This document shows positions 20,037 to 39,339 of a stretch of 64,000 nt of DNA, piece after piece. A program made the translations under genes and the position numbers. The DNA comes from Rhizorhapis sp. (GTDB taxonomy: Bacteria > Pseudomonadota > Alphaproteobacteria > Sphingomonadales > Sphingomonadaceae), in the NCBI GenBank assembly GCA_036570425.1, contig DATCYF010000014.1:357-64356 (forward strand). The letters run 5' to 3'. Within the stretch, counting starts at the first letter, position 1. The number at the start of each line of letters is the position of its first letter. The notes beneath the pieces are model-generated. The model was not told where the DNA came from. It was given only the letters and a program-made list of their open reading frames with translations, and did not search any database.

Positions 20037-20909
20037 ATGAACCTGCAGCATCTTCGTTATCTGGTGGGCTTTTCGGAACACCGCACGCTCACCGATGCCG
20101 CCGATAGCCTGGGCATCTCCCAACCCGCGATCTCGCGGGCGCTGCACGAACTCGAGCAGGAGCTCGGATGCATACTCTTCCAGCGCACGGGGCGGCGGCT
20201 GGAGTTCACGCCAGCGGGCCACGACGTCCTGAAGGCCGCGCGACGCGCCCTCGCCGCGATCGCCGACATCCGTCATGTCTCGGATGCACATGCGGTGACA
20301 CCAATTCTGCGCATTGCGACACTTGGGGCGATCGCCGCAGGCATGTCGCCGGTGCTGGAACGCTTCATCCGCAAGGAGCCGGAAACGCAAGTCCAGGTCC
20401 ATCACTTCGCGCATGAAGAAGGCATGCTCGACATGCTGCGCCGGCGAGATGTCGATATCGCCTACAGCAGCGTCGCGAAGACGCCGTGGGGCCTCACCTT
20501 CACCGCGACGCGCCCTCTCGGCATCGTGCTCGCCTCACCCATCGGCACCAATCTGCCGGCGACTGTCACCTTCAAATCGCTCGACAAGCTGCCGATGATC
20601 TGCCCGTCCCCCACCGAGGAGCGGCGCCGACTGCTCGACGAGCCCTGCGAACGCGCCGGCGCAATCCTGAACTGCGTGATCGAAAGCGGCGATCCGACGA
20701 CTTTCCTCAGCGGCATTCGCGCCGGTATCGGATCCTCGTGCATGTGGGACGTCAACGCCGAACAGGCGACTGGCATCGAGGTTCGGCAGTTCGATCCCCC
20801 GCGCGAAATCGCCGTCGGATTCATCCATCATGCGAAGCCCTCGTCGATGGTGCGCACGCTCCTCGATATCTCACGCCGGCTCGAGCGCGAAAGGTTGCGT
20901 CCTGCTTGA
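20037..20909 (+). CDS. LysR-family transcriptional regulator
   Basis: MNLQHLRYLVGFSEHRTLTDAADSLGISQPAISRALHELE winged-HTH. It is divergent from the SDR-remnant/racemase/bicupin operon. Confidence 0.9.
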   Translation: MNLQHLRYLVGFSEHRTLTDAADSLGISQPAISRALHELEQELGCILFQRTGRRLEFTPAGHDVLKAARRALAAIADIRHVSDAHAVTPILRIATLGAIAAGMSPVLERFIRKEPETQVQVHHFAHEEGMLDMLRRRDVDIAYSSVAKTPWGLTFTATRPLGIVLASPIGTNLPATVTFKSLDKLPMICPSPTEERRRLLDEPCERAGAILNCVIESGDPTTFLSGIRAGIGSSCMWDVNAEQATGIEVRQFDPPREIAVGFIHHAKPSSMVRTLLDISRRLERERLRPA

Positions 20910-21092
20910 CCATGATGGCCATTGCATACGGCGGCGTTATCTTTCGAAGACAATCATAAGGCCGTATGCGGTTGTCCCTCGACGTTCCGTCATCCATCCG
21001 CCGCAGTAAGGAAACCGGCACAGACCGGGCTTGAGAGAGGATGCCGACGCCATCGGCCTCCAATCGATCAAGTATCGCGTTCGGAGGAAATT

Positions 21093-23456
21093 ATGCGAGC
21101 ATCGTTCTATGGTTTGGTAAATTGCGTCGCGTCGGCGGCAGTTCTGGGTTCATCCGGCGTCGCCGCCGCACAGGGCGCGCCGACGGGCTCCGTCGGCGGC
21201 AACATCCCGTCAGTCCCGCCTGCGACGGAAACGCCGACCGATTCCGGCATGGGCGATATCGTCGTCACTGCCCGCCGCGTCAGCGAGAATGCGCAGACGG
21301 TGCCCGTCACAGTGTCAGCGTTCAACGCCGATGCGCTGCGTGCCAGTTCGATCAGCCAGCCGCAGGACCTGCAGACTTCGGTCGCCGGTATCTTCCTTGG
21401 CGGATCGGGCGCGCCGACGAACGCGAACTACGCGATCCGCGGCGTGACCAAGCCGGTCGCTGGCCAAGGCGCGCCGGGCGTCGTCAGCTATTTCGCGGAC
21501 GTTCCCCTCCCCGCCTATGTCAGCTCCACGCCGCAATACGATCTCGCCTCGATTCAGGTTCTGAAAGGTCCGCAGGGCACTTTGTTCGGCCGGAACACGG
21601 TCGGTGGCGCCCTGCTCATCGATCCGGTCGCGCCGGGCTATCGGTTCGATGGCTACCTGCAGGCGAGCTACGGCAACTTTGACACGAAATCACTGGAGGG
21701 CGCGCTCAACGTGCCCATCGTCGACGGCAAGGTCGCGCTGCGCGTCGCCGGCCGGATCAACCGCGGCGACGGACAGGTCAAGAATCTCGGCAGCGGCCGC
21801 GATTTCCAGAACCAGCACGACAACAGCTTCCGCGCCTCGCTGCTGATCGAGCCAACCCACTGGCTGAAGAATCTCACCATCTTCGACTATTTCGATCTGC
21901 CGCTCAGCAAGAACGGCGGCGCCGCGCAGGTGGTCGTCGCGACGGGTATCCCCGCCTTCCAGCCATTTGTGGACGCTCAGAAGGCACTCGGACCCCACCG
22001 CATCGATGGTGGCGACATCGACAATTACAACAGTTCGCGAGCGCTGGGCGTGACCAACCGCACCGATCTCGATTTCGGCGCCGTGACCGTCACCAACATC
22101 TTCGGCTTTCGCCAGATCAAGAGCGAAAATCTCAGCAACTTCGACGGTGTGCCGGGCCATGTCCTCGACACCTATCAGCTGATCCGCAACAAGCAGTACA
22201 CCGACGAGCTGCAGATCAAGGGCGATCTGTTCGACGGCAAACTCGAATGGCTGGCAGGCGCGTTCTATCTGAACACGCCCGATGGGACGATCGGCTACGA
22301 CAGCGATCTCTCCACACTCGGCGTCCCCAATACCCCGCTCGGCTACAGCTTCTACAGCGAGAAAAGCAAGGCGCTGTTCGCGAACCTGACCTACGAGGTG
22401 ATCCCCGGCGTCCGCATCAATGGCGGCTATCGCTACACTTGGGACAGCTATGAATCGTGCAGCGGCACCAGCGACGAGCTCGATCCCCGCGCCGGGCGCG
22501 GGCCAGGCGATTGCCCGAGCGGTCTCGCCGCAGGCAGCCAGGTCGAGGGCAAGTCGAAGGCCCCGACCTGGACGATCGGCGTCGACTGGAAGGCCTCCGA
22601 CGAACTCTTCCTCTATGCGACGTCCCGGCGCGGGTACAAGACGGGCGGCATCAATGCGCCGGCGTACGGGCCGGGCCTGCGGCCGTACCAGACCTTCGCT
22701 CCGGAAAAGACTACCGACATCGAACTCGGCGCCAAGACCGACTTCCGCTTCGGCGACACCCGCCTGCGCTTCAACGCCTCGGTGTTCCGCGCCAAGACCA
22801 AGGGCATCCAGGTCATCGCCACCAGCGTCTCCACCTCCAGCTATCAGGCCGCGAACCTCGCCTGCACCGCGACGAACCCGGCGCCGTTCATTGACGGCGA
22901 CTGCAACCTGCTCAACGATCCGCTGCAGACCGTCATCACCATCAACGGCGGCGACGTCGTCAACCGCGGTATCGAGCTCGAGGCGACGATTGCGCCAACC
23001 CACCGCCTGATCTTCAGCGGCAATGCCACCTTCCTCGATTCGAAGACGAAGAAGCAGACGATCCCCGATGTCCTGTCCGCCTTCTTTCCGGTGGGCGACA
23101 TCCCGCTGCTCTTCACCCCGAAGACGTCCTATTCGGGCAATGTCAGCTACACCGTTCCTTTGGGTGACGACATCGGCGAGATCGCGTTCAACGCGCAATA
23201 CTACCACTCTGGATCGATCAATTTCTCGAATCTGATCACCGATCCGTACGACGTCGTGAACGCCAAGCTCGACTGGAACAAGGTCGCCGACCTTAGCCTT
23301 GACGTCAGCTTCTTCGTGAAGAACCTGTTCAAGGAAAAATATATCATCGGCCCAGGCGTGACCCCTGCTAACGCTATTCCGGTCTCGACGGCATTGTTCG
23401 CACCGCCGCGGACCTACGGCATCCAGGTCCGCTATCGCTTCGGAGCATCGCGATGA
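21093..23456 (+). CDS. TonB-dependent receptor
   Basis: GGAGGA RBS. Signal peptide MRASFYGLVNCVASAAVLGSSGVAAAQG, TonB-box/plug region DIVVTARR and IQVLKGPQGTLFGRNTVGG. The C-terminus is ...QVRYRF followed by 4 extra residues (GASR). Confidence 0.9.
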   Translation: MRASFYGLVNCVASAAVLGSSGVAAAQGAPTGSVGGNIPSVPPATETPTDSGMGDIVVTARRVSENAQTVPVTVSAFNADALRASSISQPQDLQTSVAGIFLGGSGAPTNANYAIRGVTKPVAGQGAPGVVSYFADVPLPAYVSSTPQYDLASIQVLKGPQGTLFGRNTVGGALLIDPVAPGYRFDGYLQASYGNFDTKSLEGALNVPIVDGKVALRVAGRINRGDGQVKNLGSGRDFQNQHDNSFRASLLIEPTHWLKNLTIFDYFDLPLSKNGGAAQVVVATGIPAFQPFVDAQKALGPHRIDGGDIDNYNSSRALGVTNRTDLDFGAVTVTNIFGFRQIKSENLSNFDGVPGHVLDTYQLIRNKQYTDELQIKGDLFDGKLEWLAGAFYLNTPDGTIGYDSDLSTLGVPNTPLGYSFYSEKSKALFANLTYEVIPGVRINGGYRYTWDSYESCSGTSDELDPRAGRGPGDCPSGLAAGSQVEGKSKAPTWTIGVDWKASDELFLYATSRRGYKTGGINAPAYGPGLRPYQTFAPEKTTDIELGAKTDFRFGDTRLRFNASVFRAKTKGIQVIATSVSTSSYQAANLACTATNPAPFIDGDCNLLNDPLQTVITINGGDVVNRGIELEATIAPTHRLIFSGNATFLDSKTKKQTIPDVLSAFFPVGDIPLLFTPKTSYSGNVSYTVPLGDDIGEIAFNAQYYHSGSINFSNLITDPYDVVNAKLDWNKVADLSLDVSFFVKNLFKEKYIIGPGVTPANAIPVSTALFAPPRTYGIQVRYRFGASR

Positions 23457-24556
23457 GCGCGCGTCCCGATCTCCAGCTCTTCGCCGTCGGCGATCTGCAG
23501 CTGATGACGCGCGAGCCGCCAGCTGATCTCTTCGAGCAGGTCACGCCGACCTTGTCGGCGGCCGACATCACTTTTGGCAATTGCGAATGGCCCTATGCTG
23601 AAGAGTCGGGCGACACCCATCCGATCGAAGCCCACATCAACGACGATTTCGACGGTGGCGATCTGTTTGCGCCGGGTGCGCCCGAAAGCATCCGGATGAT
23701 GGGCGCAGCCGGCTTCGACGTCATGTCGGTCGCCAACAATCACACCATGCACGGCGGCTACCGCGCCTTCCTGCGGACGATGGAGCTCCTCCGCGAATCC
23801 GGCATCGCGCCTGTCGGCGGCGGCGACAACATCCTCGCCGCGCGCGAGCCGGCGATCATCGAACGCCATGGCTACAAAATCGGGTTCCTTGCCTGCACCA
23901 CGGGCTTCTTGCCCGGTGCCCATGCTGGCCGCCGGACCCCGGGCATCGTGCCACTGCGTCGGCATACCTATGCCGAGAATGCATCCTGGCAGAACTGGGG
24001 CATCGAACCCGACGTCCGCACTCTCGTCAACCGCGACGATCTCGGTGCCCTGATCGAAAGCGTGACGGCGCTTAAGAAGCGGACCGACATCGTCGTCATG
24101 AGCTGCCACTGGGGCATACTTGAGCACCCTTCGGCAATCGCGGAATACCAACGCGAGGCCGCCCGCGCCCTGATCGACGCCGGCGTTGACCTGATCCTCA
24201 GCCAAGGCCCGCTGCCGATCAAGGGCTTCGAGGTCTACAAGGGCAAAGCGATCCTCTACTGCATGGGCAAGTTCGCGATGATCTCGCCCTGGTCGCGCGA
24301 CGAAACGCCATCGGGCATTTCCGCGCCGCTGCTCGACGAGACGAGCCGCGGCCTCGGTGCATCGATCACGATCTCGGAAAACGGGATCACCGGTGTCCGG
24401 ATTGTGCCGGTCTATCTCGGCAGCAGCGGGCGGCCAAAAATGCTTGAACCGGGCGCGCCCCATCACGCCGAAATCCTCCGCATCGTCGCCGAACGCACCC
24501 AGGCGGCGGGCCTGACAGGCTCAATGAGCGCCGACGGCGAGATCGACCTCTCGTGA
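23453..24556 (+). CDS. CapA/PGA_cap-family metallophosphatase-fold protein (divergent)
   Basis: ATGA overlap with the TBDR stop. CapA blocks AVGD, NCE, VANNH and MSCHWG are present, but the usual GHHPH block reads LSQGPLP. Confidence 0.75.
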   Translation: MSARPDLQLFAVGDLQLMTREPPADLFEQVTPTLSAADITFGNCEWPYAEESGDTHPIEAHINDDFDGGDLFAPGAPESIRMMGAAGFDVMSVANNHTMHGGYRAFLRTMELLRESGIAPVGGGDNILAAREPAIIERHGYKIGFLACTTGFLPGAHAGRRTPGIVPLRRHTYAENASWQNWGIEPDVRTLVNRDDLGALIESVTALKKRTDIVVMSCHWGILEHPSAIAEYQREAARALIDAGVDLILSQGPLPIKGFEVYKGKAILYCMGKFAMISPWSRDETPSGISAPLLDETSRGLGASITISENGITGVRIVPVYLGSSGRPKMLEPGAPHHAEILRIVAERTQAAGLTGSMSADGEIDLS

Positions 24557-24565
24557 CGCGGACTC

Positions 24566-25642
24566 ATGACTGAGCCGGTCGCGCACCAGGACGCGGCTGC
24601 GCTGATGCAGCGGCTCGGCGGCTGGCTGTCGGGTCGCATGGCCGGTGCCCCGTCGGTCGAGATCCGCGACGTCGTCGAGCCGTCGCAGGGCTTCTCCAGC
24701 CGGACAATTCTGTTCACCGCCGCGATCCGCGCCGAAGGCGGCTGGCGCGAACGGCCGCTCGTCGCGCGTCTGCAGCGCGACGTTGCGGTGCCGATGCTGG
24801 CGGATGTCTTTCACCAGTATCGGGTCATGCGCGCGGTCGCGGCACATTCCAACGTCAAGGTGCCGAACATCGACTTTGCCGAGGAGACCGGCGCGGTGCT
24901 GGGGACGCCGTTCTTCCTGATGGACTGCATCGATGGCCGAGTACCGCCCGACTTTCCGAGCTACCATGCCCAAGGCTGGTTCGCGGAGAACCTTGATGCA
25001 GCGGGGCGGGAGCGGATGTGGTGGAACGGCATCGAGGAAATGGAGCGGCTTCACCGCATCGACTGGCGCGCCTTCCCGTTCCTCGCCCCCGGACTGGCGG
25101 AAGCACCCACTGCCGTCTTCTACCTCGAAAAGTTCGTCGCGAACTGGTTCGACTGGGCGGCACAGGGGCGGTCGTTTCCGGTCATCGAGGAGTCGCTCCG
25201 GTTCCTGATCGCCAATCCACCGCCGACGCAGCGCTCCGGGATCGTCTGGAACGACGCGCGGCTCGGCAATACGATGTTCCAGTGCGACACGGCGGAGGTC
25301 GCGTCGCTGCTCGATTTCGAGGTCGCCTCGCTCGGCCCGCCGGAGATCGACCTCGCCCATTGGATGTATCTCGACGACGTCTTCAGCACCAATTTCGGGA
25401 TCGCACGCATCGCCGGAATCCCCGACGAGAACGCCGCAATCCGGGGTTTCGAGCGCATCTATGGTTGGCCCATGCCCTATTTCAGCTATTACCTCGCGGT
25501 GGCGGCGCTGAAGATCCTTATCCTGTCAGTGCGTGACTACAGCAACGGCAAGACGATGGACACCCCCGAGGCCCTCCCCGATTTCCTCGTTGATCGGCTT
25601 CGCCACTATGTCGCCCGCTATGCCGATTACCTTGCGGGATGA
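24566..25642 (+). CDS. APH/ChoK-fold phosphotransferase-family protein, small type (358 aa)
   Basis: Catalytic-loop region IVWNDARLGNTMF (D-x4-N retained, with Asn in place of the usual His) and metal loop LLDFEVASLGPPEIDLAHW. Confidence 0.8.
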   Translation: MTEPVAHQDAAALMQRLGGWLSGRMAGAPSVEIRDVVEPSQGFSSRTILFTAAIRAEGGWRERPLVARLQRDVAVPMLADVFHQYRVMRAVAAHSNVKVPNIDFAEETGAVLGTPFFLMDCIDGRVPPDFPSYHAQGWFAENLDAAGRERMWWNGIEEMERLHRIDWRAFPFLAPGLAEAPTAVFYLEKFVANWFDWAAQGRSFPVIEESLRFLIANPPPTQRSGIVWNDARLGNTMFQCDTAEVASLLDFEVASLGPPEIDLAHWMYLDDVFSTNFGIARIAGIPDENAAIRGFERIYGWPMPYFSYYLAVAALKILILSVRDYSNGKTMDTPEALPDFLVDRLRHYVARYADYLAG

Positions 25643-25817
25643 ATGAGAGTGACGATGAACGAACCACGGGACAATGCCATCCGAGGGCAAGAAGATCGGA
25701 TTCATCGCGACCGCAGTTCATCAGGACTGGGCTCGGTAGATCGGTGTGAAGTCGATAACGCCAAGGAGTCCCACGATCGCGGTCTCGTCATACGAGGATC
25801 GCATGGCAGAACGACCG

Positions 25818-27182
25818 TCAAGGTGCGAATGGCTGCAGCGCATATTGGGTGAGACGCTCTCGTGCAGGCACCGCCTCTGCCATGCGATCCTCGACCTGCC
25901 TCGCAAAATAGTCGAGCAACATCGCATCGTGCTCCGGCCCGGCCGTTTGGACGAAGCGCTCCATCGCGGCATCCGTCTCGCGCCAGTCCGCGGGACGGTA
26001 GCCCAGGATCGCGGCCGCACGATCGAGATCGGCCGCCTCATGCGCCGGCCGCATCGCTGCCTCCGCCCTCGCCCACTCGACCAGGCTCTCGGCTGAGCAC
26101 CTGTCGTTCTCGCCGAGCTTCGAGTTCGCGGTGTCGATCCTGCCGACCGTCGCCTCCAGGACCTGCCACACGATCTGCGAGCGAGTGTCTGCAGGCTCGG
26201 CTGGCGTCGACGGGACAATGGTGACGCCCATATGCTCGGCGATGGCCCAGAGCAGCGCCCGACGACACAAAATATCCCAGATGATGTACTCATATTGCAT
26301 GTCCGCAGGACCCGGATCGGCCAACGGTCCGGCTAACGTCATCGCCGAAGAGAGCATGAATGTCGCAGTGTGGTAGCTGAACGCTTTCTGATCGATCACC
26401 ATCCCCGTGATGCGCGCATAGTGGCGGACCAGATGATTGGGACCGGCACCCAGGGGCTCGGTTGGATGCCGCAGCCGGAGTGCGGCGAGATCGTGCAGCG
26501 GATCACCGATATGGGTGGCCTCGAAGTCGTATAGAGTGGTGACCCTGCCCTCTTCGAAGAGGAATTGTCCGGGGTCTCCATGAAGGAGGCATGTCCTGCT
26601 GCGATCCTGCGGCACGTTGCGTGACACCCATCGTAGAGCCCATTCCATCATCGGTTGCGGAGTCTTCTTGAGCCGGTGGAAGATCGCTATGTTGGGAGCC
26701 AAATATGCGAACGCCGTCTCTTCCGGAGAACTCGGCTGAGCCACGCCTGCAGCGACAAATGGCGCGGTGTCGAGGCTGTGGATCCGCGCGAGGATTTCGA
26801 TGCTTTCCTCGGCGATCCGCTGCGCCTCAGCGGCATTGGCCGCCTCCGAGACATCCCGCGTCCCGGGCACGCGATCCATGACGATCCCCTCGGGATCATG
26901 GCTCATGCCATAGACGTGAGGAACCGGAATGCCGCCCTGTTCGAGCAGCTTGAGGATCGCGGCCTCGCGCGCCAGGCCGGGAAATGTCTCGGCATCAATC
27001 CCTTTATCTCCACGAATGTAGAGGGGGATCGTGCGGCCGTCGCGGCTGACTTCCGCATACCAGCTCGTACGCCAGCGTGGCTGCCGCTCCAGCATTGTCA
27101 CGCGTCCGCCGACCAGCCGCTCAATCTGCCGGGCGAGCCGCTCAGTCACGTCGCCCTTAACTACAGCAAGGTTCATGTTCAT
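25818..27182 (-). CDS. APH/ChoK-fold phosphotransferase-family protein, large type (454 aa)
   Basis: LLHGDPGQFLF (HGD present, but no Asn at D+5), LYDFEATHIGDPLHDLA, and a roughly 130-aa C-terminal helical extension. Confidence 0.8.
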   Translation of the reverse strand: MNMNLAVVKGDVTERLARQIERLVGGRVTMLERQPRWRTSWYAEVSRDGRTIPLYIRGDKGIDAETFPGLAREAAILKLLEQGGIPVPHVYGMSHDPEGIVMDRVPGTRDVSEAANAAEAQRIAEESIEILARIHSLDTAPFVAAGVAQPSSPEETAFAYLAPNIAIFHRLKKTPQPMMEWALRWVSRNVPQDRSRTCLLHGDPGQFLFEEGRVTTLYDFEATHIGDPLHDLAALRLRHPTEPLGAGPNHLVRHYARITGMVIDQKAFSYHTATFMLSSAMTLAGPLADPGPADMQYEYIIWDILCRRALLWAIAEHMGVTIVPSTPAEPADTRSQIVWQVLEATVGRIDTANSKLGENDRCSAESLVEWARAEAAMRPAHEAADLDRAAAILGYRPADWRETDAAMERFVQTAGPEHDAMLLDYFARQVEDRMAEAVPARERLTQYALQPFAP

Positions 27183-27254
27183 TCCCGCCCGCGGATGAAG
27201 ATCGTGCCTTCGTCGGGTGAGCCACGATCCGCGCCCGACGAAGATGGCTTCAGT

Positions 27255-27629: not shown

Positions 27630-27731
27630 GCCGACTCCTTTGATTAGGTTCAGGGATGACGTGACGCGCGGAGCGCGGGACAGGGTATGGGATGGCCATC
27701 CGTCAATGCAAAAGCGATCGGCATAGCAAGG

Positions 27732-28148: not shown

Positions 28149-28194
28149 TCTATGCTCCTCTCCGATCGTCTTTATATCCAAATATCCAACTTGC

Positions 28195-28233
28195 CTCGAT
28201 GACACGCCTACCTCCTCGATAACACGCCTACCT
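28195..28233. promoter_or_regulatory. Two 19-bp direct repeats with 20-bp phasing in a divergent promoter
   Basis: CTCGATGACACGCCTACCT (28195-28213) and CTCGATAACACGCCTACCT (28215-28233) match at 18 of 19 positions. They lie between the LEH-like gene (-) and the MDR gene (+). Confidence 0.45.
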
Positions 28234-29257: not shown

Positions 29258-29259
29258 GC

Positions 29260-30593: not shown

Positions 30594-30632
30594 GACAAGG
30601 CGAGAAAACCAAAGATGAAGCGGCCCAAAACG

Positions 30633-31412: not shown

Positions 31413-32537
31413 CTACCTCCGATTCATGACGGCAACCACCCGCATATAATCGTCGTTGGGGCCAGGATCAGCCAAACCCATCATACCGGCAAGAACACCC
31501 GAGGCCGGGTTGACGAGCCAACCGCTATTATCCGGCGCAAGCAGCCCATCTGCGATCAGGTTACGAACGGTCCGCGCCATAACGAGTGACATGCGCACAC
31601 CAGAAAGCTTCGCGTAATAGTCAAGGTTGGCGACCGGGCGGCCAAGTGCAACCTCGAACGCATCGATCTGCTCGGCGCGCGTTGGCATGCCAGTCAGCAA
31701 TGGCCGGCCGTCACTGACCATCTCGTCGACGAAGAACCACCAGCTCAGGTCTATCTCGGCTGGGCCGACGGCACTCGCTTCGAAGTCCACTGCTGCCGCT
31801 ATCCGACCATCACGGAAGAAGAGAAAATTACCCGGATTGGAATCCCCCCAAAGCAACTCCACTTCGGCACTTCGGGGACGATGCTCGTGCAGATATGCCA
31901 TTGCCGCGTCGACCACGGGATGCTTCTCGCCTGCGCACGCCATGTCCCGCCAAGCGCCAAGCCAGCCGAGATAGGCGTCCAGCCCCGGTGCCCCATATTC
32001 GGAATTGTGGAGGAATCCGAAATCTTCGCGCCAGGGCAGCTTGTTGATCTGGGAAATTGTATTGATTGCCCCAAACCATGCCTCGCGCCGGGTCGCCGGG
32101 TCGAGCTCATGGAGCAGGCCCGCGACATGATAGCTTGGATGCATCGGCAGCGAAACGCCCGAGATTCGATCCATTACGAGAAAGCTGCCACCAATCAGCG
32201 ATGCGTTTTCTTCCCAGCCCACGATCGCGGGCACCGAAATTCCATGATTGCTCAACGCCTGCATCATGCGGGCCTGCTTAACAATGCTAGTCCCTAGAAA
32301 GGTGTTGCGGCCGGGTCGTTCGATCCGCACTACCAGTGCCCGCTTACCCATGACGCCGGTAGCGCAGCCCTCCAGATCGATAAGGAAAGTATCTGCCGAA
32401 AAGCCCGTCTTCGGAACCGCAACGTCGACAATATGACAACGATCGCCTAATTCCGGCTGGCGGCACAACCATGATTCCAACCCTGCGATAATTGACGAAG
32501 GCGCTTCCAAGCCGATCTCCTTTCCTTTGCCCTTCAC
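31413..32537 (-). CDS. APH/ChoK-fold phosphotransferase-family protein, small type (about 374 aa)
   Basis: LLWGDSNPGNFLF (D-x4-N retained, with Trp in place of His) and VDFEASAVGPAEIDLSWW. GTG 32537 overlaps the stop of the upstream large-type gene (GTGA); ATG 32615 is an alternative start. Confidence 0.8.
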   Translation of the reverse strand: MKGKGKEIGLEAPSSIIAGLESWLCRQPELGDRCHIVDVAVPKTGFSADTFLIDLEGCATGVMGKRALVVRIERPGRNTFLGTSIVKQARMMQALSNHGISVPAIVGWEENASLIGGSFLVMDRISGVSLPMHPSYHVAGLLHELDPATRREAWFGAINTISQINKLPWREDFGFLHNSEYGAPGLDAYLGWLGAWRDMACAGEKHPVVDAAMAYLHEHRPRSAEVELLWGDSNPGNFLFFRDGRIAAAVDFEASAVGPAEIDLSWWFFVDEMVSDGRPLLTGMPTRAEQIDAFEVALGRPVANLDYYAKLSGVRMSLVMARTVRNLIADGLLAPDNSGWLVNPASGVLAGMMGLADPGPNDDYMRVVAVMNRR

Positions 32538-33952
32538 AAGCGGTCGAGGATCGGCTCCATCTTTGCCAAGGCGAGGTGGTTCGTTGCCGCGTCCGGGCCC
32601 GCAATGATCAGGCATTGCCGCAATAACCGGCGATAGAAGAGTCGGACCAGGGCCTTGTCATGCTCGGGCGCCGCAGAGCGTACGAAGTCCACCAGTTCGC
32701 GATCCGCCACCTTCAGATCCTTGGGCCGATGGCCCAGCACCTCAGCAGCATCATTCAGATCTGCGTCGCGTGCCCAGCCGTGATAATGAAGCTGATTACG
32801 AAGATAGATCGGGATGGCGGCGAGCACCCCACGCTGCCAGTCTGCAAAGTCTTCGGATAGCGGCAGATGTTGCACCTCCGCTATCAGCTTGTCGAGCGCC
32901 ATGTCCTCCAGCGGCGTGACATCCGGTTCTGGCAATTCGAACTCTTCCAATTCCAGGCCAAGTATCTCGGCCATTGCCTCGGCGCAGCGACGCCCGATCA
33001 GCGCCACCTGAACTTGAGCTTCCACCCAATCTCCGCCCGGCACAATCTTGTCGAGGGCGAAGAGCGGTGCATAATAGCCGATGCACATAAAAACGACCGT
33101 ATGATAAGCGATAACCCGCGCATCGAGCGGCTCGCCCAGAGCTTTTTCATAGTGCCGGAAGAGCGCCGGCAAATCGCCCATATTCTCGATCGGATGGCGC
33201 CCGCGGAAACATGCAAGATCGTGAAGGTGATCGCCCAAATAGCCGACCTCGACATCCAGGATGGCAGTTACTTCGGGGCCTTCGGAGAGGAACTGGCCAC
33301 AATCGCCCGTGACGAAAGAGATGCGCGAACGATGCTCCGGAACATTGCGCCGGAGCCAGACTGCGCAAAATTCCATGAACGGATCGATAATGCCGTGATC
33401 GGTACACATGGCGTAGAAGCGTTCAAAGCTATTGAGCGCAATGTCGCTCGCGCCTGACGGCATCTTTGCGCCCGCTTCGGCAAATTGTTCCGGCGGAATC
33501 TGGTGCATGCCGGCTAAGATTTCCATATATTTGAGGCTGGCGGCCCATCGATCGTCAGTCATGACTGAACCGGACTCGATCGCCTCCTGGACAAGCCCCG
33601 GATCCCTGCCACCGCGCATCCATTCCATTATGATCGCAAGAGGCTCAGGGCACATTCCGTGGACATGCGGCACGCGTATGCCGTTAGCCTCGAGCACCTG
33701 CATCATGCGCATTTCGTATTCGAGCGGATATGGATGCGCGCTCCACTCGCGCGTGCCCTTGCACAAAAGATCGGTGGGTGCGCCATTGTCCTGGTACGTT
33801 GCGCGCCACACCGGACGCCAGCGACGCTGGCGAACGATCTTGTCGACCGGGCCGCCGAGATTCTCCGTAATCCAGGCAGCGAGCTTACCGAAGTCGTCCG
33901 ATTTGTCGTCAATCCGGGCAACGGGGTTCCTGTTCGCAACGTTGATGGTCAT
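32534..33952 (-). CDS. APH/ChoK-fold phosphotransferase-family protein, large type (472 aa)
   Basis: SFVTGDCGQFLS (Thr in place of His, no Asn at D+5), ILDVEVGYLGDHLHDLA, and a C-terminal helical extension. It is a clear paralog of 25818..27182. Confidence 0.8.
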   Translation of the reverse strand: MTINVANRNPVARIDDKSDDFGKLAAWITENLGGPVDKIVRQRRWRPVWRATYQDNGAPTDLLCKGTREWSAHPYPLEYEMRMMQVLEANGIRVPHVHGMCPEPLAIIMEWMRGGRDPGLVQEAIESGSVMTDDRWAASLKYMEILAGMHQIPPEQFAEAGAKMPSGASDIALNSFERFYAMCTDHGIIDPFMEFCAVWLRRNVPEHRSRISFVTGDCGQFLSEGPEVTAILDVEVGYLGDHLHDLACFRGRHPIENMGDLPALFRHYEKALGEPLDARVIAYHTVVFMCIGYYAPLFALDKIVPGGDWVEAQVQVALIGRRCAEAMAEILGLELEEFELPEPDVTPLEDMALDKLIAEVQHLPLSEDFADWQRGVLAAIPIYLRNQLHYHGWARDADLNDAAEVLGHRPKDLKVADRELVDFVRSAAPEHDKALVRLFYRRLLRQCLIIAGPDAATNHLALAKMEPILDRL

Positions 33953-34032
33953 GGATGGATCCTCTTTTTATTTAGATGTGCACAAAACCACCATATTGGT
34001 GATATCCAGCCTTTGCAGCCCGCCCACGGTTC

Positions 34033-36510
34033 CTAAAAGCGATAGCCGAGTGTCACTCCATAGGTTCGCGGTTCACCAATCGATCCTTCAGCAACACCGA
34101 AAGATGTGATGAAATCGGCGACGTTGGTAAGGTAGCGCTTCCGCGTTATGTTACGTCCCCACACCGACAATTCCATTGCCGGGTTGTCCAGGTTGAGGGT
34201 GACGCGCGCGTTCAGCAAGCCATAGGCCGGGATAATGCCGACGCGGTTCGCCAGTTCGTATTGATCCTTGACGTTCTGGGTTGCCTGATCGGCGGCAGTA
34301 TTCTGATAAGCAGCACGGCGTGAAATATAAGCATAATCCGCATGCACCGACAACTGGCCAAACGAGATTGGTATAACCTGAGTCGCACCGATATTCCATG
34401 TTAGCCGCGGTGCCTGAGGAATTTTCTCACCACTGCGATCGACGTCGAACGGCTTGAGCGTGCCAGTGGCATTTTGGCCGACGCAGGCTGTCGACGGAAG
34501 CCCACGATCGGCCCCGTCGACACAGATGATCTGCGTCTCATTGAAGGTTCCCTTAACGTACTTTGCCCGCAACAGTGAGAGGCTGCCAGTCACCTCCATG
34601 CCCTTCCAGGGAAGGACGGTCGCTTCAAACTCGGCACCATAGCTGCGCGCCTTGCCAGCGTTGGTCGTATAGGATGTCAGCGACTGAAAGACTGGATCAA
34701 AAGTGCGGATATTCCGCTGAACGTCGCTCTGCCAAGCGTGGAAAATCGCTACATTGAAGCGCAACTTGCGATCGAACAAGTCAGCCTTGAAGCCTGCTTC
34801 GACATCGCGAACATTTTCCGGCTTGAAGGCTGGAGCGATCGAGTCTCGCAGATTCCACCCCCCAGCCATGGAGGCGCCGCTCGTCTTCGCATATACGAAC
34901 ATCGAGTCGTTCACTTTGTAATCAAGGCCAGCCGTCCAGGCAGGATAATCAAAATCGATATCGCGCGTACGGTCGCAGGCGCCGCCCGGGATGTCCCGCT
35001 GATCTGCCGGAATCGCACATTCCAGCGTGTCACGATCCAGCCGAGTGTGCAGCACCAGCTTGCGGCTGTCCCACGTATAGCGCAACCCGCCGGTTGCTCT
35101 CAGCCGGTCGGTAAGATGATAGTTGATCTGGCCATAAATAGCCTTGGAAACGCTGCGGGCATCACCCGAGGTATTGCGAAAAACCTTGGCATTGGGATCA
35201 AGTATGCTGAAAGATTTCGCATCGGCCTCCTCATATCCCTTTTCAATGAAATAATAGAGTCCGCCTATCCATTCCAGCCTTCCCGACTTTCCGGAGAGCT
35301 GCAATTCTTCGCTGAACTGTTTTTGCCTGGTGTGCGCGATGAATGAGACCAGATTTATTGGCAAACTGTCGATGTCGAGGGTGTCTCCGGACTTTGCCTC
35401 GCGATACGCAGTGATTGACTGAAGATTAGCACCACCGAGGTCGACATCCAGTGTCGCCGAAACGCCCTTCCCGCTGCTCCGGTTCTGGGGCTTATCGAGA
35501 TCAGCTTCGCCAGTGTCGTTGTAACCATAGCTGCTGTAAAAGTTTTTCTTATTCAGCAGATAATCATTCGGATCGATCCCCGTTCCCGCCACTGCATCTC
35601 CGACCGTGAAGCCGGGCGAAAGCTCAAAATCGGGATTATAGCCGACGAGACCTGTCAACTGGCCGCTATCGCGGAAGCGCGTATAATCACCAGACACAGT
35701 CAGCGTGAAAGGCTTATCGGCCGGAGCCCAGCGCAACTGCCCGCGAACATAGTAGTTTCCGCGCACGTCGGCCGCCGGTCGATCGAGCCTCACGAAACGC
35801 CCATATCCGTCCCGCTCGTTATAGGAGCCGGCAAAACGGACAGCGAGTTCATCCCCCATGAGAGGAATGTTCAGAACTCCCTCATAACGCCGATAGTCAT
35901 AGTTCCCCACGCTCGCCTTAACCGAGCCTTCAAGATCACCGGTAGGCGCGTTTGTTGTCAGACTGATAGCGCCGCCTACGGTATTACGCCCGAAAAGCGT
36001 GCCCTGCGGTCCACGAAGAACTTCAACGCGAGCGACATCAATGAGATCGAGATTACTGCCGGTCGGGCGCGCAATATAGACGCCGTCGACATAGATGCCG
36101 ACCGCCGGGTCCGTAGCGGTGGTTGGCTCGTTTTGACCTTGCCCGCGGATCGCGACGAACACAATCGAGGTCGGCGCGCCACCTCCCGTCGCAATGCTGA
36201 GCGATGGAGCGGTACGCTGCAGATCGGCAACCGCTGTGATCTGCGCGCGATCCAAGCTGGCCGGGGTCAGGGCGGTGACGGCGACTGGCGTCGTCTGAAG
36301 CGCCTCGCTGGAACGGCGGGCAGTCACGATGATATCTTCAAGACCGCCCGATTCCGCCGCATTACTGACCGCGTTGGCTTCAGCGGTAGATGCGGGCGCT
36401 GGATTGGACACCTCTTCATCCGAGGCCTGTGCGAATGCCGGGCAACCGAACAAAGGCACGCCTGCAACTATGAAGATCGAAACCGAAGTCAGCAGCCCAG
36501 AAGCGCGCAT
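34033..36510 (-). CDS. TonB-dependent receptor
   Basis: Signal peptide MRASGLLTSVSIFIVAGVPLFGCPAFAQA, TonB box/plug DIIVTARR and VEVLRGPQGTLFGRNTVGG, and C-terminal TLGYRF. Confidence 0.9.
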   Translation of the reverse strand: MRASGLLTSVSIFIVAGVPLFGCPAFAQASDEEVSNPAPASTAEANAVSNAAESGGLEDIIVTARRSSEALQTTPVAVTALTPASLDRAQITAVADLQRTAPSLSIATGGGAPTSIVFVAIRGQGQNEPTTATDPAVGIYVDGVYIARPTGSNLDLIDVARVEVLRGPQGTLFGRNTVGGAISLTTNAPTGDLEGSVKASVGNYDYRRYEGVLNIPLMGDELAVRFAGSYNERDGYGRFVRLDRPAADVRGNYYVRGQLRWAPADKPFTLTVSGDYTRFRDSGQLTGLVGYNPDFELSPGFTVGDAVAGTGIDPNDYLLNKKNFYSSYGYNDTGEADLDKPQNRSSGKGVSATLDVDLGGANLQSITAYREAKSGDTLDIDSLPINLVSFIAHTRQKQFSEELQLSGKSGRLEWIGGLYYFIEKGYEEADAKSFSILDPNAKVFRNTSGDARSVSKAIYGQINYHLTDRLRATGGLRYTWDSRKLVLHTRLDRDTLECAIPADQRDIPGGACDRTRDIDFDYPAWTAGLDYKVNDSMFVYAKTSGASMAGGWNLRDSIAPAFKPENVRDVEAGFKADLFDRKLRFNVAIFHAWQSDVQRNIRTFDPVFQSLTSYTTNAGKARSYGAEFEATVLPWKGMEVTGSLSLLRAKYVKGTFNETQIICVDGADRGLPSTACVGQNATGTLKPFDVDRSGEKIPQAPRLTWNIGATQVIPISFGQLSVHADYAYISRRAAYQNTAADQATQNVKDQYELANRVGIIPAYGLLNARVTLNLDNPAMELSVWGRNITRKRYLTNVADFITSFGVAEGSIGEPRTYGVTLGYRF

Positions 36511-37076
36511 TCTGATCCTCCCCTTTTTGAGCTTTTGCCCAGACGACCCTTGTTTCTGATCGTTTATAGGAAAGTCAGATATGTGCCATAACGATTATTA
36601 TGTATACAAGAAGTTTTTACATATAATCTGAAGCCAGTTTTGATTATGCTTATCGAACTTCCAGCAGGGCACCGGAATGGACTAGCCTAGCCTCACACGC
36701 CAAGACAGACAAAAATGAAAGACCCGGCGCCGGCAGATGGCACTGTCCTAGCTCCAGTCAGCAGACGGTGGCGGATCAGTATCATCTGCTATTAATTTCA
36801 TTTACGCCCATTTATGCATAACGAACTAGACATACGGACAAATGAACAATACGATATCCATCGTAGTTGGTCGAACAGCCGGATTCTACGGCGGACAACC
36901 CGACGGCACGATCGCAAACGAGAGTCGATCGGTTTCATTGGTAAGCATAGCGCAGCGTCATTCGGTCGACAGGATGTCGAACAATGCAATCTTCGTGCAG
37001 CACGGCTAATGATCGGAGGATTGTCTTTCTTTATATCCGATCGGCCTCCGGAAACGTATAAAGGACGAAACGCGCC
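36511..37076. promoter_or_regulatory. 566-bp divergent intergenic region with an AT-rich core (TBDR operon / Mo-oxidoreductase)
   Basis: No convincing ORF in this span. It is markedly AT-rich around 36580-36860 and contains the palindromes TGTATACA (36601-36608) and TTATGCATAA (36812-36821). Confidence 0.6.
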
Positions 37077-39302
37077 ATGATCGAGACCCGCATCGGTATC
37101 TGTAAAGTATGTTGGGCGACATGCCCGATTGAGGTAACAGTCGATAACAACCGCGCGATCAAGGTTGTCGGCGATCGCGAGTCACCGATATATGGCGGAT
37201 ATACCTGTCCGAAGGGGCGGGCGATGCCGGAAGGGCATTATTCGCCCGATCGGGTCCTTCACGCGCAGCGGCGTCGATCCGACGGTCAATATGAAGCCAT
37301 CACCACCGACCAGGCGCTCGACGAAATCGCAGCGAAGCTGAAGGCGATCATCGACGAGCACGGGCCCGAAGCGGTCGCGGTCTATCCCGGCAATGGAAAT
37401 CTGAGCAATCCACTTAACCCGGTCATGGGAGCCATGTTCATCATGGCGATGGGCACGTATCCAGACCGATTCTTCTCCGTCCAGACGATCGATCAGGCAG
37501 GCAAGGTGATCGCGCAGGCGCTTCACGGTCGCTGGATGGCAGGACCAAATGCATTCGCCAGTTCGGAAACCTGGATCATGGTCGGCACTAATCCGGTAAT
37601 CTCCAAGCAGGGCCTCTCGATCAACCCGGGTCAGACCGTGAAGCAGGCCGTGAAGAACGGGATGAAGCTGATTGTAGTCGATCCGCGCAAGACAGAATCT
37701 GCCAAACACGCCTTTCTGCATATTCAGCCGCAACCCGGCCAAGATTCAACATTGCTTGCAGGCTTCCTGCACGTCATCTTCGCCGAAGAGCTTTACGACG
37801 CGGATTTCGTGACGGCCAATGCCGTTGGCTTCGATGTGCTCAAGCGCGCCGTGGCCGGCTTCACCCCCGACCATGTATCGAGGGTGGTTGGTGTACCGAA
37901 GAATCAAATACTGCTGGCTGCGCGCACCTTCGCCGCCGCTAAGAGCGGTTGTGTGGTGACCGCTACAGGTGCCCACTTTCCACTCCATGGCACCCTTGCC
38001 GAATATTTGGCCCTGTGCATCAACACAGTTTGCGGACGCTGGGTCAGGGCGGGACAGCCACACAGTCAACCGCATGTGCTCCTGCCCGGGGTGGACATCC
38101 GCGCCCAACCCTATGCGCCCTATCAACCATGGGATTACAGCATCCGCAGCCGGATCAACGCCCTACCACGAACAGTGGTCGGCGCGCCCACGGGGACACT
38201 TCCCGACGAGATCCTGACCCCCGGGAAAGGTCAGGTGCGTGCGCTAATTTGCTCGGGTAGCAATCCCATGGTGTCGCTGCCGGACCAGATGCGGGCTTTC
38301 GAGGCGCTCGGCTCACTCGACCTCCTCGTGTCGTTGGACGTTGAAATGTCAAACACAGCGCGGATGGCCCATTATGTCATTCCCGACAAAATGTCGATGG
38401 AAACGCCGGGGGTCACTCAATTCACCGAGTCGATGAAATATTACGGTATCTGGACGGGCGGCTACGAGCAACCTTATGCCATGTACGCACCGGCGATCGT
38501 ACCGCCCCCGGAGAACTCCGACACGATTGAAAGCTGGGAATTCTTCTACGAAATTGCAAAACGGCTCGGACGGCAGATAGTCTATCATGCAAATTCCGCC
38601 GGGACCGGCGAGCATTGGGACAAGCTCCCCATCCCCTTCCCCCTCCCTCTTGATAGGCGTCCGACGACGGAGGAGATGTTCGAGTTCATGTGCGCCGGCT
38701 CACGCGTGCCTTTGTCGGAAGTAAAGCGGCATGTTCACGGCAAGTTGTTTGACGAGCTCGACATCACCGTGAAGCCGCGCGCCTCCGATTGCGACGCGAT
38801 GCTCCAGCTTGGCGATCCCACCATGATCGCTGAACTTGACATCGTGCTCAACGAAAACGGTGATACCGCTGTTCCCAGCGCGGAATTCCCGCTAATGATG
38901 ACGCCACGGCGCACCAACGAAATGATGAACTCGATCGGCCGGCAAAACCCGAAGCTCGGCGGCAAGAAATCCTATAATCCTGCTTTTCTCAATCCTTCGG
39001 ACATGGAGCGGTTCGGCGTTTCAGCGGGGGACATTATCCGCATCCACTCCCTTCATGGCGAAATACTCGGCGTCGCTGAACCCGAGCCGCATCTGCGCAT
39101 GGGCACGCTGTCAATGTCCCATTGCTATGGCCCGAACCCAGACGAACCCCTCGATCCGAAGGGACAGGGTGGGTGCACCTCACGGCTAATAGACGCGAAC
39201 GCCGATTTTGATCCTATCTTCGGCCAGCCTCGGATGGGCGCGATCCCCGTCGCGATCGCGCCAATCGAAGATGAGCTGTCGTTGCTCCACGCGGCGGAAT
39301 AG
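37077..39302 (+). CDS. Molybdopterin (bis-MGD) oxidoreductase, DMSO-reductase superfamily; cytoplasmic and stand-alone
   Basis: N-terminal 4-Cys FeS motif CKVCWATC...YTCPKG, MopB-like core, and a C-terminal beta-barrel-like region of the kind found in this superfamily. No Tat signal. 741 aa. Confidence 0.85.
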   Translation: MIETRIGICKVCWATCPIEVTVDNNRAIKVVGDRESPIYGGYTCPKGRAMPEGHYSPDRVLHAQRRRSDGQYEAITTDQALDEIAAKLKAIIDEHGPEAVAVYPGNGNLSNPLNPVMGAMFIMAMGTYPDRFFSVQTIDQAGKVIAQALHGRWMAGPNAFASSETWIMVGTNPVISKQGLSINPGQTVKQAVKNGMKLIVVDPRKTESAKHAFLHIQPQPGQDSTLLAGFLHVIFAEELYDADFVTANAVGFDVLKRAVAGFTPDHVSRVVGVPKNQILLAARTFAAAKSGCVVTATGAHFPLHGTLAEYLALCINTVCGRWVRAGQPHSQPHVLLPGVDIRAQPYAPYQPWDYSIRSRINALPRTVVGAPTGTLPDEILTPGKGQVRALICSGSNPMVSLPDQMRAFEALGSLDLLVSLDVEMSNTARMAHYVIPDKMSMETPGVTQFTESMKYYGIWTGGYEQPYAMYAPAIVPPPENSDTIESWEFFYEIAKRLGRQIVYHANSAGTGEHWDKLPIPFPLPLDRRPTTEEMFEFMCAGSRVPLSEVKRHVHGKLFDELDITVKPRASDCDAMLQLGDPTMIAELDIVLNENGDTAVPSAEFPLMMTPRRTNEMMNSIGRQNPKLGGKKSYNPAFLNPSDMERFGVSAGDIIRIHSLHGEILGVAEPEPHLRMGTLSMSHCYGPNPDEPLDPKGQGGCTSRLIDANADFDPIFGQPRMGAIPVAIAPIEDELSLLHAAE

Positions 39303-39339
39303 GGGTAACCAAACAATATTTGAAATATAATAGAGCAAA

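Follow-up and report, generated by a model that had tools for sequence, protein, structure and literature searches.

Positions 20037-39302 of a 64,000-nucleotide stretch of DNA from Rhizorhapis sp. (the whole of this stretch is referred to as the window in the rest of the text) contain genes for two TonB-dependent receptors (TBDRs), four proteins of the aminoglycoside phosphotransferase (APH) fold and a molybdenum enzyme of the bis-pyranopterin guanine dinucleotide (bisPGD) type, along with several putative enzymes and a regulator. A preliminary description of the same DNA had presented this block as a single orphan island. Here, we show that these 19 kb are two diverged copies of one conserved, uncharacterised gene set, and not a single island. 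The gene inventory, which is based on an open reading frame (ORF) listing combined with Pfam and NCBIfam scans, is as follows.

19959/20037-20909, plus strand: LysR-family regulator (Pfam HTH_1 and LysR_substrate; no NCBIfam equivalog)
20922/21093-23456, plus strand: TBDR_A (Pfam Plug and TonB_dep_Rec_b-barrel; below all NCBIfam cut-offs)
23453-24556, plus strand: divergent, cytoplasmic CapA/PGA_cap-like protein of the metallophosphoesterase fold (Pfam PGA_cap, 161.6 bits against a cut-off of 27)
24566-25642, plus strand: small kinase A, 358 aa (Pfam APH)
25818-27182, minus strand: large kinase A, 454 aa (Pfam APH)
27255-27629, minus strand: h124, a 124-aa protein of unknown fold (no Pfam match)
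27732-28205, minus strand: protein of the NTF2 fold matching both limonene-1,2-epoxide hydrolase (LEH; 39.8 bits, cut-off 24) and SnoaL_2 (37 bits) in Pfam
28292-29257, plus strand: quinone-oxidoreductase-like medium-chain reductase, MDR (Pfam ADH_N and ADH_zinc_N_2)
29610-30464, minus strand: classical short-chain dehydrogenase/reductase, SDR (Pfam adh_short; NCBIfam matches below cut-off)
30588/30615-31343, plus strand: EthD-domain protein (Pfam EthD, residues 143-222; called as a 242-aa gene in the public contig L001)
31413-32510, minus strand: small kinase B, 365 aa (Pfam APH)
32534-33952, minus strand: large kinase B, 472 aa (weak Pfam APH match)
34033-36510, minus strand: TBDR_B (Pfam Plug and barrel)
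36511-37076: divergent control region of 566 bp between TBDR_B and the molybdenum enzyme gene, with no regulator gene inside
37077-39302, plus strand: monomeric cytoplasmic Mo/W-bisPGD enzyme (Pfam Molybdop_Fe4S4, Molybdopterin and Molydop_binding)
39336-39372: strong terminator-like hairpin with a 17-bp stem, between the convergent genes for the molybdenum enzyme and an outer-membrane protein (OMP)

Most of the inventory drawn up earlier is borne out by Pfam: the two TBDRs, the LysR regulator, the CapA-like protein, the four APH-fold proteins, the LEH protein, the MDR, the SDR, the EthD protein and the Mo-bisPGD enzyme are all recovered. Two entries were not borne out. The EthD protein had been read as a double-domain protein, while Pfam places a single EthD domain in its C-terminal half (residues 143-222) and detects no second one in the protein encoded at 30615-31343. 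Likewise, a SnoaL-like and an LEH-like protein had been listed side by side; both family matches stand, on the one protein encoded at 27732-28205, and the 124-aa ORF at 27255-27629 has no SnoaL support. As for the components previously reported as missing, Pfam scans of 20-39.3 kb revealed no inner-membrane transporter, oxygenase, CoA ligase, glycoside hydrolase or mobility gene, and the ORF listing gave the divergent intergenic regions the geometry already described. None of the 18 proteins tested reached a curated NCBIfam cut-off or equivalog.

By gene spacing, the block is organised in three operons. The first (plus strand, 21093-25642) contains TBDR_A, the CapA-like gene, whose start overlaps the TBDR_A stop at 23453-23456, and small kinase A. 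The second (minus strand, 28205 to 25818) begins with LEH, followed by h124 and ending with large kinase A. The third (minus strand, 36510 to 31413) contains TBDR_B, large kinase B and small kinase B, separated by gaps of 80 and 23 bp. These operons make up two modules, between which the MDR, SDR and EthD genes are located.

Module A, 21093-28205: TBDR_A, CapA-like and small kinase A on the plus strand, convergent with LEH, h124 and large kinase A on the minus strand
Module B, 31413-39302: TBDR_B, large kinase B and small kinase B on the minus strand, divergent from the molybdenum enzyme gene on the plus strand

The counterparts in the two modules share 30% identity for the small kinases, 32% for the large kinases and 27% for the TBDRs. 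The description of the block as one island flanked by TonB receptors does not survive this arrangement. Both receptors are the first genes of internal operons and a third TBDR gene, under the control of a cobalamin riboswitch, lies at 40623. The right end of the unit is marked by the hairpin at 39336-39372. Near 29.5 kb, and so within the block rather than at its edges, the GC content steps from ~0.63 down to ~0.56. We rejected a genomic island since the GC shift is internal, Pfam detects no integrase or transposase in the block, its limits are not formed by a tRNA, a repeat or a mobility gene (the sole tRNA of the window is at 53340) and the two halves are independently conserved in other genomes. 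When the whole region was compared with PLSDB by megablast, nothing matched that would indicate a plasmid origin. An identical public contig (L001, from Logan SRR3648004, 17.8 kb) begins at about 29.1 kb of the window, close to the GC step located at ~29000-30000, and for this reason the two halves may have separate histories. This contig covers the right half only; for the left half, an exact look-up of the large kinase A protein returned nothing.

The LysR regulator is of uncertain membership in the system. Its gene and an Asp/Glu-racemase-like gene at 18718-19593 point away from each other, and LysR may regulate the latter rather than TBDR_A. This racemase-like gene (minus strand, Asp/Glu/hydantoin-racemase family) is accompanied by a 328-aa ORF without family match (17695-18681, minus strand), both being divergent from the LysR gene. 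Regarding cis-acting sites, only weak inverted repeats were found as possible operators in the divergent regions, and scans for sigma-70 promoters and terminators were uninformative apart from the hairpin at 39336-39372. The AT-rich segment at 36560-36650, just upstream of TBDR_B, includes an imperfect palindrome, ATGTATACAAGAAGTTTTTACATAT. This palindrome could be an operator; there is no adjacent regulator gene here, and a TetR gene occurs at loci L075 and L076 (see below).

To place the modules among related genomes, one genome per GTDB species was scanned for the large kinase, yielding 65 loci. The window proteins were mapped on these loci by tblastn, and 1,146 predicted neighbours were clustered and the clusters annotated with Pfam. 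The closest arrangement was found in two related sphingomonads. Locus L075 carries a TetR gene in opposite orientation and then, all co-directional, genes for a TBDR (48% identity), a large kinase (62%), a molybdenum enzyme (75%) and a small kinase (45%), and L076 carries the TetR gene followed by the TBDR (55%), the large kinase (64%) and the molybdenum enzyme (74%). The TetR gene lies upstream of the TBDR in both, where the window has the bare 566-bp region. In Porticoccaceae-type and other gammaproteobacterial metagenome-assembled genomes (MAGs), the molybdenum enzyme gene (63-66%) is adjacent to and upstream of the large kinase gene (61-64%) at five loci (L002, L003, L007, L009 and L010), and a convergent small kinase gene (48%) stands beside this pair at all of them except L007. 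Orthologues of small kinase B with 45-48% identity adjoin both partners in L002, L009, L010 and L075. A dodecin gene, coding for a small flavin-binding protein that is absent from the window, just precedes the pair in the Porticoccaceae MAGs (L002, at ~7306-7515, L003 and L009), and dodecin could be a redox partner. The core gene set is conserved across two proteobacterial classes and, judging from these alignments, module B is a real conserved unit comprising the TBDR, the large kinase, the molybdenum enzyme and the small kinase. The check proposed earlier, whether the kinase pair, the molybdenum enzyme and the TBDRs are found together in other genomes, has a positive outcome for this core, in the L075 and L076 operons as in the Porticoccaceae and other gammaproteobacterial adjacencies.

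Components of module A are conserved elsewhere. Genes for the CapA-like protein (65-83%) and small kinase A (63-68%) are adjacent at about 11 loci of Novosphingobium, Sphingobium and Caulobacteraceae, where genes for a large kinase, a SnoaL_3 protein and a TBDR are present too, frequently along with one for a distant paralogue of the molybdenum enzyme. The notion of one 19-kb pathway is not supported. By tblastn across the 65 loci, the core shows no co-conservation with MDR, SDR, EthD or LysR. An MDR homologue is beside the large kinase at only one of them (L041) and a single weak EthD homologue was found (L048). SDRs are the commonest neighbours of the large kinase, with 26-44% identity to the SDR of the window, which has no orthologue there. 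No characterised catabolic cluster matching the block emerged from NCBIfam or the literature, and we found no published description of this gene set.

The census of families within 10 kb of the large kinase, given here as raw counts without a matched background set, shows the company in which this protein is found. Among the 65 loci, SDRs occur at 39, TBDRs at 28, cytochromes P450 at 17, Mo-bisPGD enzymes at 14, and ACAD_2-type and Rieske proteins at 12 each. Less frequent neighbours are AraC regulators (11 loci), double SnoaL_3 proteins (10), small kinases and GMC oxidoreductases (9 each), LEH proteins, sulfotransferase_3 proteins and aldehyde dehydrogenases (ALDH) (8 each), and KstD-like FAD_binding_2 proteins and EcKL-like kinases (6 each). 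Five operon types recur.

Type 1: TBDR, large kinase, molybdenum enzyme, small kinase
Type 2: AraC, LEH, paralogue of the molybdenum enzyme, large kinase (sometimes two), SnoaL2, TBDR; in gammaproteobacterial MAGs L051, L056 and L058
Type 3: Rieske alpha and beta, two P450s, large kinase; in Novosphingobium, including a MAG labelled Chol11
Type 4: large kinase, two SDRs, large kinase, SnoaL_3, TBDR, SDR, KstD-like
Type 5: ALDH, GMC, SGL, TBDR, large kinase, TBDR, MFS, AraC; in Sphingobium

Two further observations concern these neighbourhoods. In Sphingobium aromaticiconvertens (L004, features at 11415-12623 and 14927-16075), the gene immediately after the large kinase codes for a Rieske protein with a KshA_C domain, resembling 3-ketosteroid 9-alpha-hydroxylase, and an EcKL-like (ecdysteroid-kinase-like) kinase gene is near. 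Moreover, Sulfotransfer_3 genes lie near large kinases at 8 of the 65 loci and near a paralogue of the molybdenum enzyme (L030-L034, L007, L066 and L073), and their recurrence may hint at sulfated substrates.

The two small kinases have an informative set of relatives. The best sequence matches of small kinase A in the PDB are Rv3168 (3ats, E 1.8e-36) and the 25-hydroxysteroid kinase (25-HSK) of Sterolibacterium denitrificans (9fsg, E 9e-28), over residues 7-323; the latter structure was released in January 2026 and was named through a fold search. Small kinase B matches the same two proteins (Rv3168, E 8e-22; 25-HSK, E 1.6e-17). Identity to 25-HSK amounts to 28% over 333 aa for small kinase A and 24% over 319 aa for small kinase B. 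An unusual catalytic loop, W-G/N-D-x-x-x-G-N, is common to the small kinases and 25-HSK, and the Mg-binding motif D-W/F-E...G-P-x-E-x-D is kept in all three. The corresponding segments read WNDARLGN (W-x-D-A-R-x-G-N) and LDFEVASLGPPEIDLA in small kinase A, WGDSNPGN and VDFEASAVGPAEIDLS in small kinase B, and WGDARPGN and LDWEMATFGPREMDVA in 25-HSK. Matches to the ACAD11 kinase domain (8v3v) and to the APH-like protein 3dxp are weaker, with E values of 1e-4 to 1e-9 compared to 1e-17 to 1e-36 for 25-HSK and Rv3168. Alignments and motifs together place small kinases A and B in the 25-hydroxysteroid kinase/Rv3168 lineage. Since identity to 25-HSK is only 24-28%, substrate specificity is not inferable for either. 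For the kinases of the block in general, a resistance phosphotransferase identity was rejected, as the scores fell far below the curated cut-offs (APH_3p, 32 bits against 205; capreomycin phosphotransferase Cph, 20 against 390).

The large kinases form an uncharacterised subfamily of APH-fold proteins of ~470 aa with a C-terminal helical extension. Large kinase B has no sequence match in the PDB. Its AlphaFold2 (AF2) model, with a mean confidence (pLDDT) of 89.9, exhibits a bilobal kinase fold extended by ~150 helical residues at the C-terminus, and the best fold matches of the model are again 25-HSK (9ft5) and Rv3168 (E 3e-9); macrolide 2'-phosphotransferases and APH enzymes are among the matches at ranks 5-50. 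Residues E80, D217, Q220, D233, E235 and D245 are invariant in 37-38 large-kinase sequences, large kinase A included, so that the catalytic Asp, the Mg-binding Asp-x-Glu and the alpha-C Glu are kept in the core. From these residues, the large kinases, like the small ones, look catalytically competent, and none of the four carries a signal peptide. The family comprises 453 representatives at E<=1e-10 among 1.84 billion clusters. Sphingomonadales, Porticoccaceae and Spongiibacteraceae widely contain homologues and orthologues of large kinase B, which share 55-71% identity with it. Large kinase A gave a weak NCBIfam match to the class V lanthionine synthetase kinase LxmK (27 bits, cut-off 315).

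The molybdenum enzyme begins directly with its [4Fe-4S] motif, C9-x2-C12-x3-C16...C44. It lacks a Tat leader or signal peptide and no gene for a beta or gamma subunit is adjacent. Because the protein starts at the cluster motif without a Tat leader, it is predicted to be a stand-alone cytoplasmic enzyme, in line with the preliminary description. The AF2 model (pLDDT 91) has a bona fide bisPGD fold that is about equally close to FdhH, Nap, acetylene hydratase, PsrA and Arr (TM 0.70-0.74, 18-21% identity), with no single closest subfamily. In profile searches the HDCR subunit FdhF ranked first and acetylene hydratase second (216 bits), and the best NCBIfam score was that of Fdh-alpha (193 bits, cut-off 666), with NasC at 169 bits (cut-off 1100). 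An invariant Asp139 aligns in the profile alignment with the Cys of the acetylene hydratase segment AMYMCIGN, which we take to be the tungsten ligand Cys141. The surrounding motif (S/T)(I/V)DQ is found in all 23 molybdenum proteins of related loci, including paralogues only 21-25% identical. This putative ligand is the residue otherwise typical of Nar and of enzymes of the ethylbenzene dehydrogenase (EBDH) type. Orthologues share 63-79% identity, and such enzymes are common in Sphingomonadales as well as in marine and freshwater Gammaproteobacteria.

Three known identities were tried for this enzyme and rejected. The ligand segment RFFSVQTIDQAG contains neither Cys nor Sec and the scores are below cut-off, excluding a formate dehydrogenase or nitrate reductase. 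Acetylene hydratase is excluded by Asp139 in place of the AMYMCIGN Cys and by the identity of ~21%. Type II hydroxylases such as EBDH and the steroid C25 and C26 dehydrogenases (S25DH and S26DH) share only the Asp, as the Tat leader and subunit genes are missing; the type II structure PcrA also ranks below the Fdh, Nap and acetylene hydratase group in the comparisons.

Three more proteins of module A were compared with solved or annotated relatives. Among solved structures, the CapA-like protein is closest to the epimerase MslH (85 bits), which is also its best NCBIfam match (MslH lasso-peptide epimerase, 104 bits against a cut-off of 700). The motifs GD, GNxE, NNH and CHWG are conserved, whereas the segment aligned to GHGPN of MslH reads SQGPLP, so that the His is lost and the last His motif is absent. 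Orthologues with 55-82% identity retain D14, N43, E45, N95, N96, H97 and H219, and the protein has no signal peptide. For h124, we obtained no Pfam match even at E=5, a negative result with hhalign against neighbouring SnoaL_2 proteins and only near-identical matches from a large protein database. The only other homologue found (31% identity) is encoded directly after LEH and large kinase genes in a Spongiibacteraceae MAG (L057). LEH-like genes are located directly upstream of the large kinase in L004, L043, L055, L057 and L069, and one gene upstream, with the molybdenum enzyme gene between, in L051, L056 and L058. In addition, NTF2-fold domains have been fused to the N-terminus of the large kinase on two independent occasions, a SnoaL_4 domain in protein P0113 and a SnoaL_2 domain in P0284. 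We take SnoaL_4 to be the Pfam family that includes BaiE. The P0113 fusion (L005 and L006) lies among genes for flavoenzymes of the old yellow enzyme (OYE) type and for electron-transfer flavoprotein and its quinone oxidoreductase (ETF/ETF-QO) in a MAG labelled Desulfobacterium, hence in an anaerobe context.

The function that we consider most likely, with a confidence that stops just short of even, is that a hydrophobic alcohol is taken up and activated with ATP, after which water-dependent molybdenum chemistry takes place. The imported compound would be hydrophobic and hydroxylated, the most plausible candidates being steroid- or isoprenoid-like; it would cross the outer membrane through the TBDR and enter the cytoplasm without a dedicated inner-membrane transporter. 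There, cytoplasmic kinases of the 25-HSK lineage, whose homology and motifs are described above, would phosphorylate one or more hydroxyls with ATP on a substrate that we infer to belong to this class. The phosphate ester would trap the compound and serve as a leaving group, and the NTF2-fold LEH/SnoaL protein, the CapA-like protein or both could then remove the phosphate by elimination or displacement. The Asp-ligated Mo-bisPGD enzyme would carry out a water-dependent hydroxylation or hydration. Finally, the SDR and MDR might adjust the redox state, a step that we propose with more reserve as their genes are not conserved with the core. The preliminary description had left the choice between a small hydrophobic and a polyol-like substrate. 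We favour the former, as the closest characterised relative is a kinase of steroid alcohols and the neighbourhoods contain P450, Rieske, KstD-like, GMC and SDR genes, and we found nothing in support of the latter. A more specific proposal, which we regard as doubtful, is that this guild represents a widespread, undescribed ATP-driven route for unreactive (e.g. tertiary) steroid or isoprenoid alcohols in aerobes, in which the kinases would attach phosphate as a leaving group, the NTF2 partners would be phosphate-eliminating C-O lyases and the Asp-ligated molybdenum enzyme a new class of hydroxylase or hydratase.

Several observations weigh against activation of a hydrophobic alcohol. The molybdenum enzyme is unrelated to the S25DH/S26DH type, with no Tat signal and no beta or gamma subunit, and since it is equidistant from Fdh, Nap, acetylene hydratase and Psr, its chemistry is not fixed by its fold. 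Both kinases look competent, which leaves the need for two of them unexplained. The 64-kb window contains no canonical steroid-ring catabolic genes, and the hosts are aerobes in which an oxygen-independent route is not obviously needed. Sphingomonads are in general rich in genes for TBDRs, SDRs, P450s and Rieske proteins, which limits what a census lacking a matched background can tell; with at least four TBDRs in 64 kb, arguments from mere proximity to such receptors also call for caution. The association of the partners is not strict either. The small and large kinases had been treated as a pair and do co-occur in the core operons, but the pairing is not obligate, as tblastn mapping finds a small kinase within 10 kb at only about 16 of the 65 large-kinase loci. 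A 77%-identical orthologue of the molybdenum enzyme in Novosphingobium sp. CECT 9465 comes after a beta-oxidation operon, and no kinase is encoded within 10 kb of it; other relatives at 45% are also without kinases, and in Porticoccaceae the module lies among housekeeping genes.

Four other explanations were considered, all of which are weakened because the operon is conserved across two proteobacterial classes and because its neighbourhoods are catabolic. The first is a mosaic, an ordinary accessory stretch of a sphingomonad whose genes have no pathway in common: abundant families (TBDR, SDR, APH, NTF2) would have come together by chance or through a loose clustering of hydrophobic-compound catabolism, and each gene would serve a different substrate. 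The GC shift in mid-region, the lack of co-conservation of MDR, SDR, EthD and LysR, the number of TBDRs in the window, the orthologues of the molybdenum enzyme without kinases and the presence of large kinases in at least five operon types are all consistent with such a mosaic. Chance assembly would however hardly yield tight co-directional operons of TBDR, large kinase, molybdenum enzyme and small kinase with all four members orthologous at 45-75%, the identical adjacency in Gammaproteobacteria, two independent NTF2-kinase fusions and a duplication of the whole set inside the window, and we consider a mosaic unlikely.

The second explanation is hydrophilic trapping: the TBDRs would import a polyol, a sugar or an amino-sugar-like nutrient, which the APH-fold kinases would phosphorylate for central metabolism, leaving side activities to the molybdenum enzyme and the reductases. 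The APH fold includes sugar and amino-sugar kinases, of which NahK and AmgK are examples. Trapping of a nutrient by phosphorylation once it has been taken up is standard, one of the proteins encoded here has a phosphoesterase fold and a polyol had already been raised as an option. Nonetheless, the kinases find their nearest characterised relatives in 25-HSK, Rv3168 and the ACAD10/11 kinase domain rather than among sugar kinases. Neither module contains an inner-membrane transporter, a glycoside hydrolase or a sugar-phosphate enzyme, and the neighbourhoods elsewhere are dominated by P450, Rieske, SDR, NTF2, GMC and KstD-like genes. Hydrophilic trapping is, in our view, quite unlikely.

It is highly improbable that the kinases serve detoxification or resistance, inactivating a macrolide, an aminoglycoside or another natural product as Mph and APH enzymes do, with an incidental link to the TBDR and molybdenum enzyme. 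Such enzymes do appear among the fold matches of the large kinase (macrolide 2'-phosphotransferases and APH, ranks 5-50) and an APH(3') score of 32 bits was obtained, but all resistance-family scores are far below their cut-offs (32 against 205 bits), a resistance kinase and an importer in one operon make little sense, and the kinases are consistently linked to catabolic oxidoreductases and the molybdenum enzyme. Tailoring of a peptide natural product, with an MslH-type epimerase and LxmK-type lanthipeptide kinases as suggested by the best match of the CapA-like protein (104 bits) and the weak match of large kinase A (27 bits), is scarcely credible given that these scores are far below the cut-offs (700 and 315), that Pfam finds no precursor peptide, cyclase, protease or exporter gene, and that the modules start with importers and have catabolic families in their census.

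Beyond 39.4 kb, the genes are unrelated to the modules and comprise the OMP, a cobalamin riboswitch, a BtuB-like TBDR and cobalamin salvage genes. The riboswitch (40325-40517, plus strand, 118 bits) lies upstream of the BtuB-like TBDR (40623-42617), which is followed by genes for DUF1636, CobT, CobC-like, CobS and CobD-like proteins; a mechanically called ORF at 40066-40551 overlaps the riboswitch and is probably spurious. On the other side, the minus strand carries a further TBDR (1071-3317), a MacB/FtsX-type ABC exporter pair (4118-7632) and, at 12387-14852, a gene coding for an 821-aa fusion of unusual architecture, in which an NAD-dependent epimerase/3-beta-HSD-like domain is joined to an SPW repeat and a vitamin K epoxide reductase (VKOR) domain.

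Neither the family of the large kinase nor that of the monomeric Mo-bisPGD enzyme of the Asp type has a characterised member. Were activation of a hydrophobic alcohol correct, the large-kinase family of ~450 representatives would gain a function, and an unusual molybdenum clade would be defined, in which an architecture like that of acetylene hydratase goes together with an Asp at the position of the metal ligand. Kinase-then-eliminate chemistry, known from anaerobic sterol side chains and from 4-hydroxy-acid catabolism, would extend to aerobes, and this would help explain the use of recalcitrant hydrophobic alcohols by TBDR-rich oligotrophs. The NTF2-kinase fusions would also offer a concrete candidate for the missing phosphate lyase of Sterolibacterium (PMC8449060, PMC11061730). 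Even if the model is wrong, an operon of four genes found in two proteobacterial classes and lacking annotation is a clean target.

Comparison with known systems reveals partial likenesses to each of several pathways. TBDR-led loci of Sphingobium sp. Chol11 and Caenibius tardaugens are candidates for the uptake of steroids and bile salts (reviewed in PMC8399759). They resemble the modules described here in that a catabolic operon starts with the TBDR gene and lacks an inner-membrane transporter. In the MAG labelled Novosphingobium sp. Chol11, homologues of the large kinase adjoin P450, Rieske and ACAD_2 genes. The difference is that neither APH kinases nor molybdenum enzymes have been reported for these loci, and we found no paper linking the two.

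Elimination or hydrolysis by NTF2-fold enzymes is known from limonene-1,2-epoxide hydrolase, the bile-acid 7-alpha-dehydratase BaiE, scytalone dehydratase and LinA. The protein encoded at 27732-28205 matches LEH and SnoaL_2, and a SnoaL_4 domain is fused to the large kinase in P0113. The scores of the former are modest, at ~40 bits. To our knowledge, no NTF2-family member of the limonene-epoxide-hydrolase, BaiE, scytalone or LinA type acts on phosphate esters.

Phosphorylation followed by elimination of 4-hydroxyacyl-CoA is carried out by LvaA, LvaB and LvaC in the levulinate catabolism of Pseudomonas putida and by mammalian ACAD10 and ACAD11. The small kinases match the ACAD11 kinase domain (8v3v) and the APH-like protein 3dxp, and in both cases an unreactive hydroxyl is, or would be, phosphorylated for elimination. 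However, the kinases of the window have no acyl-CoA dehydrogenase domain fused to them and no gene for such an enzyme beside them, and the similarity is much weaker than that to 25-HSK and Rv3168. Acetylene hydratase of Pelobacter acetylenicus (PDB 2e7z) resembles the molybdenum enzyme as a cytoplasmic monomer of ~730 aa with one N-terminal [4Fe-4S] cluster, a bisPGD cofactor and no partner subunits, with a fold similarity of TM 0.70-0.72; it differs by the AMYMCIGN Cys, in whose place the enzyme described here has an invariant Asp, and by an identity of only ~21%, and nothing points to an alkyne substrate or to tungsten.

The precedent for the proposed chemistry is the anaerobic pathway of S. 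denitrificans, in which S25DH, the 25-hydroxysteroid kinase, a putative 25-phosphosteroid lyase and S26DH relocate the hydroxyl of the sterol side chain from C25 to C26 in an ATP-dependent manner (PMC7411048, PMC8449060, PMC11061730). 25-HSK phosphorylates the tertiary steroid alcohol, a lyase that has not been identified eliminates the phosphate to yield an alkene, and a molybdenum enzyme then hydroxylates this product with water (PMC8449060, PMC7411048, PMC11061730). The molybdenum enzymes of S. denitrificans are Tat-exported alpha-beta-gamma complexes of the EBDH/S25DH type and its kinase gene has no linked partners, whereas the enzyme described here is monomeric and cytoplasmic with a single FS0 cluster, and the kinase genes form operons with a TBDR gene. 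Here there are also two kinases, and the hosts are aerobic Sphingomonadales and Cellvibrionales-type Gammaproteobacteria. What both systems have in common is an APH kinase of the same lineage, the genetic combination of this kinase with a Mo-bisPGD enzyme and a hydrophobic-substrate context.

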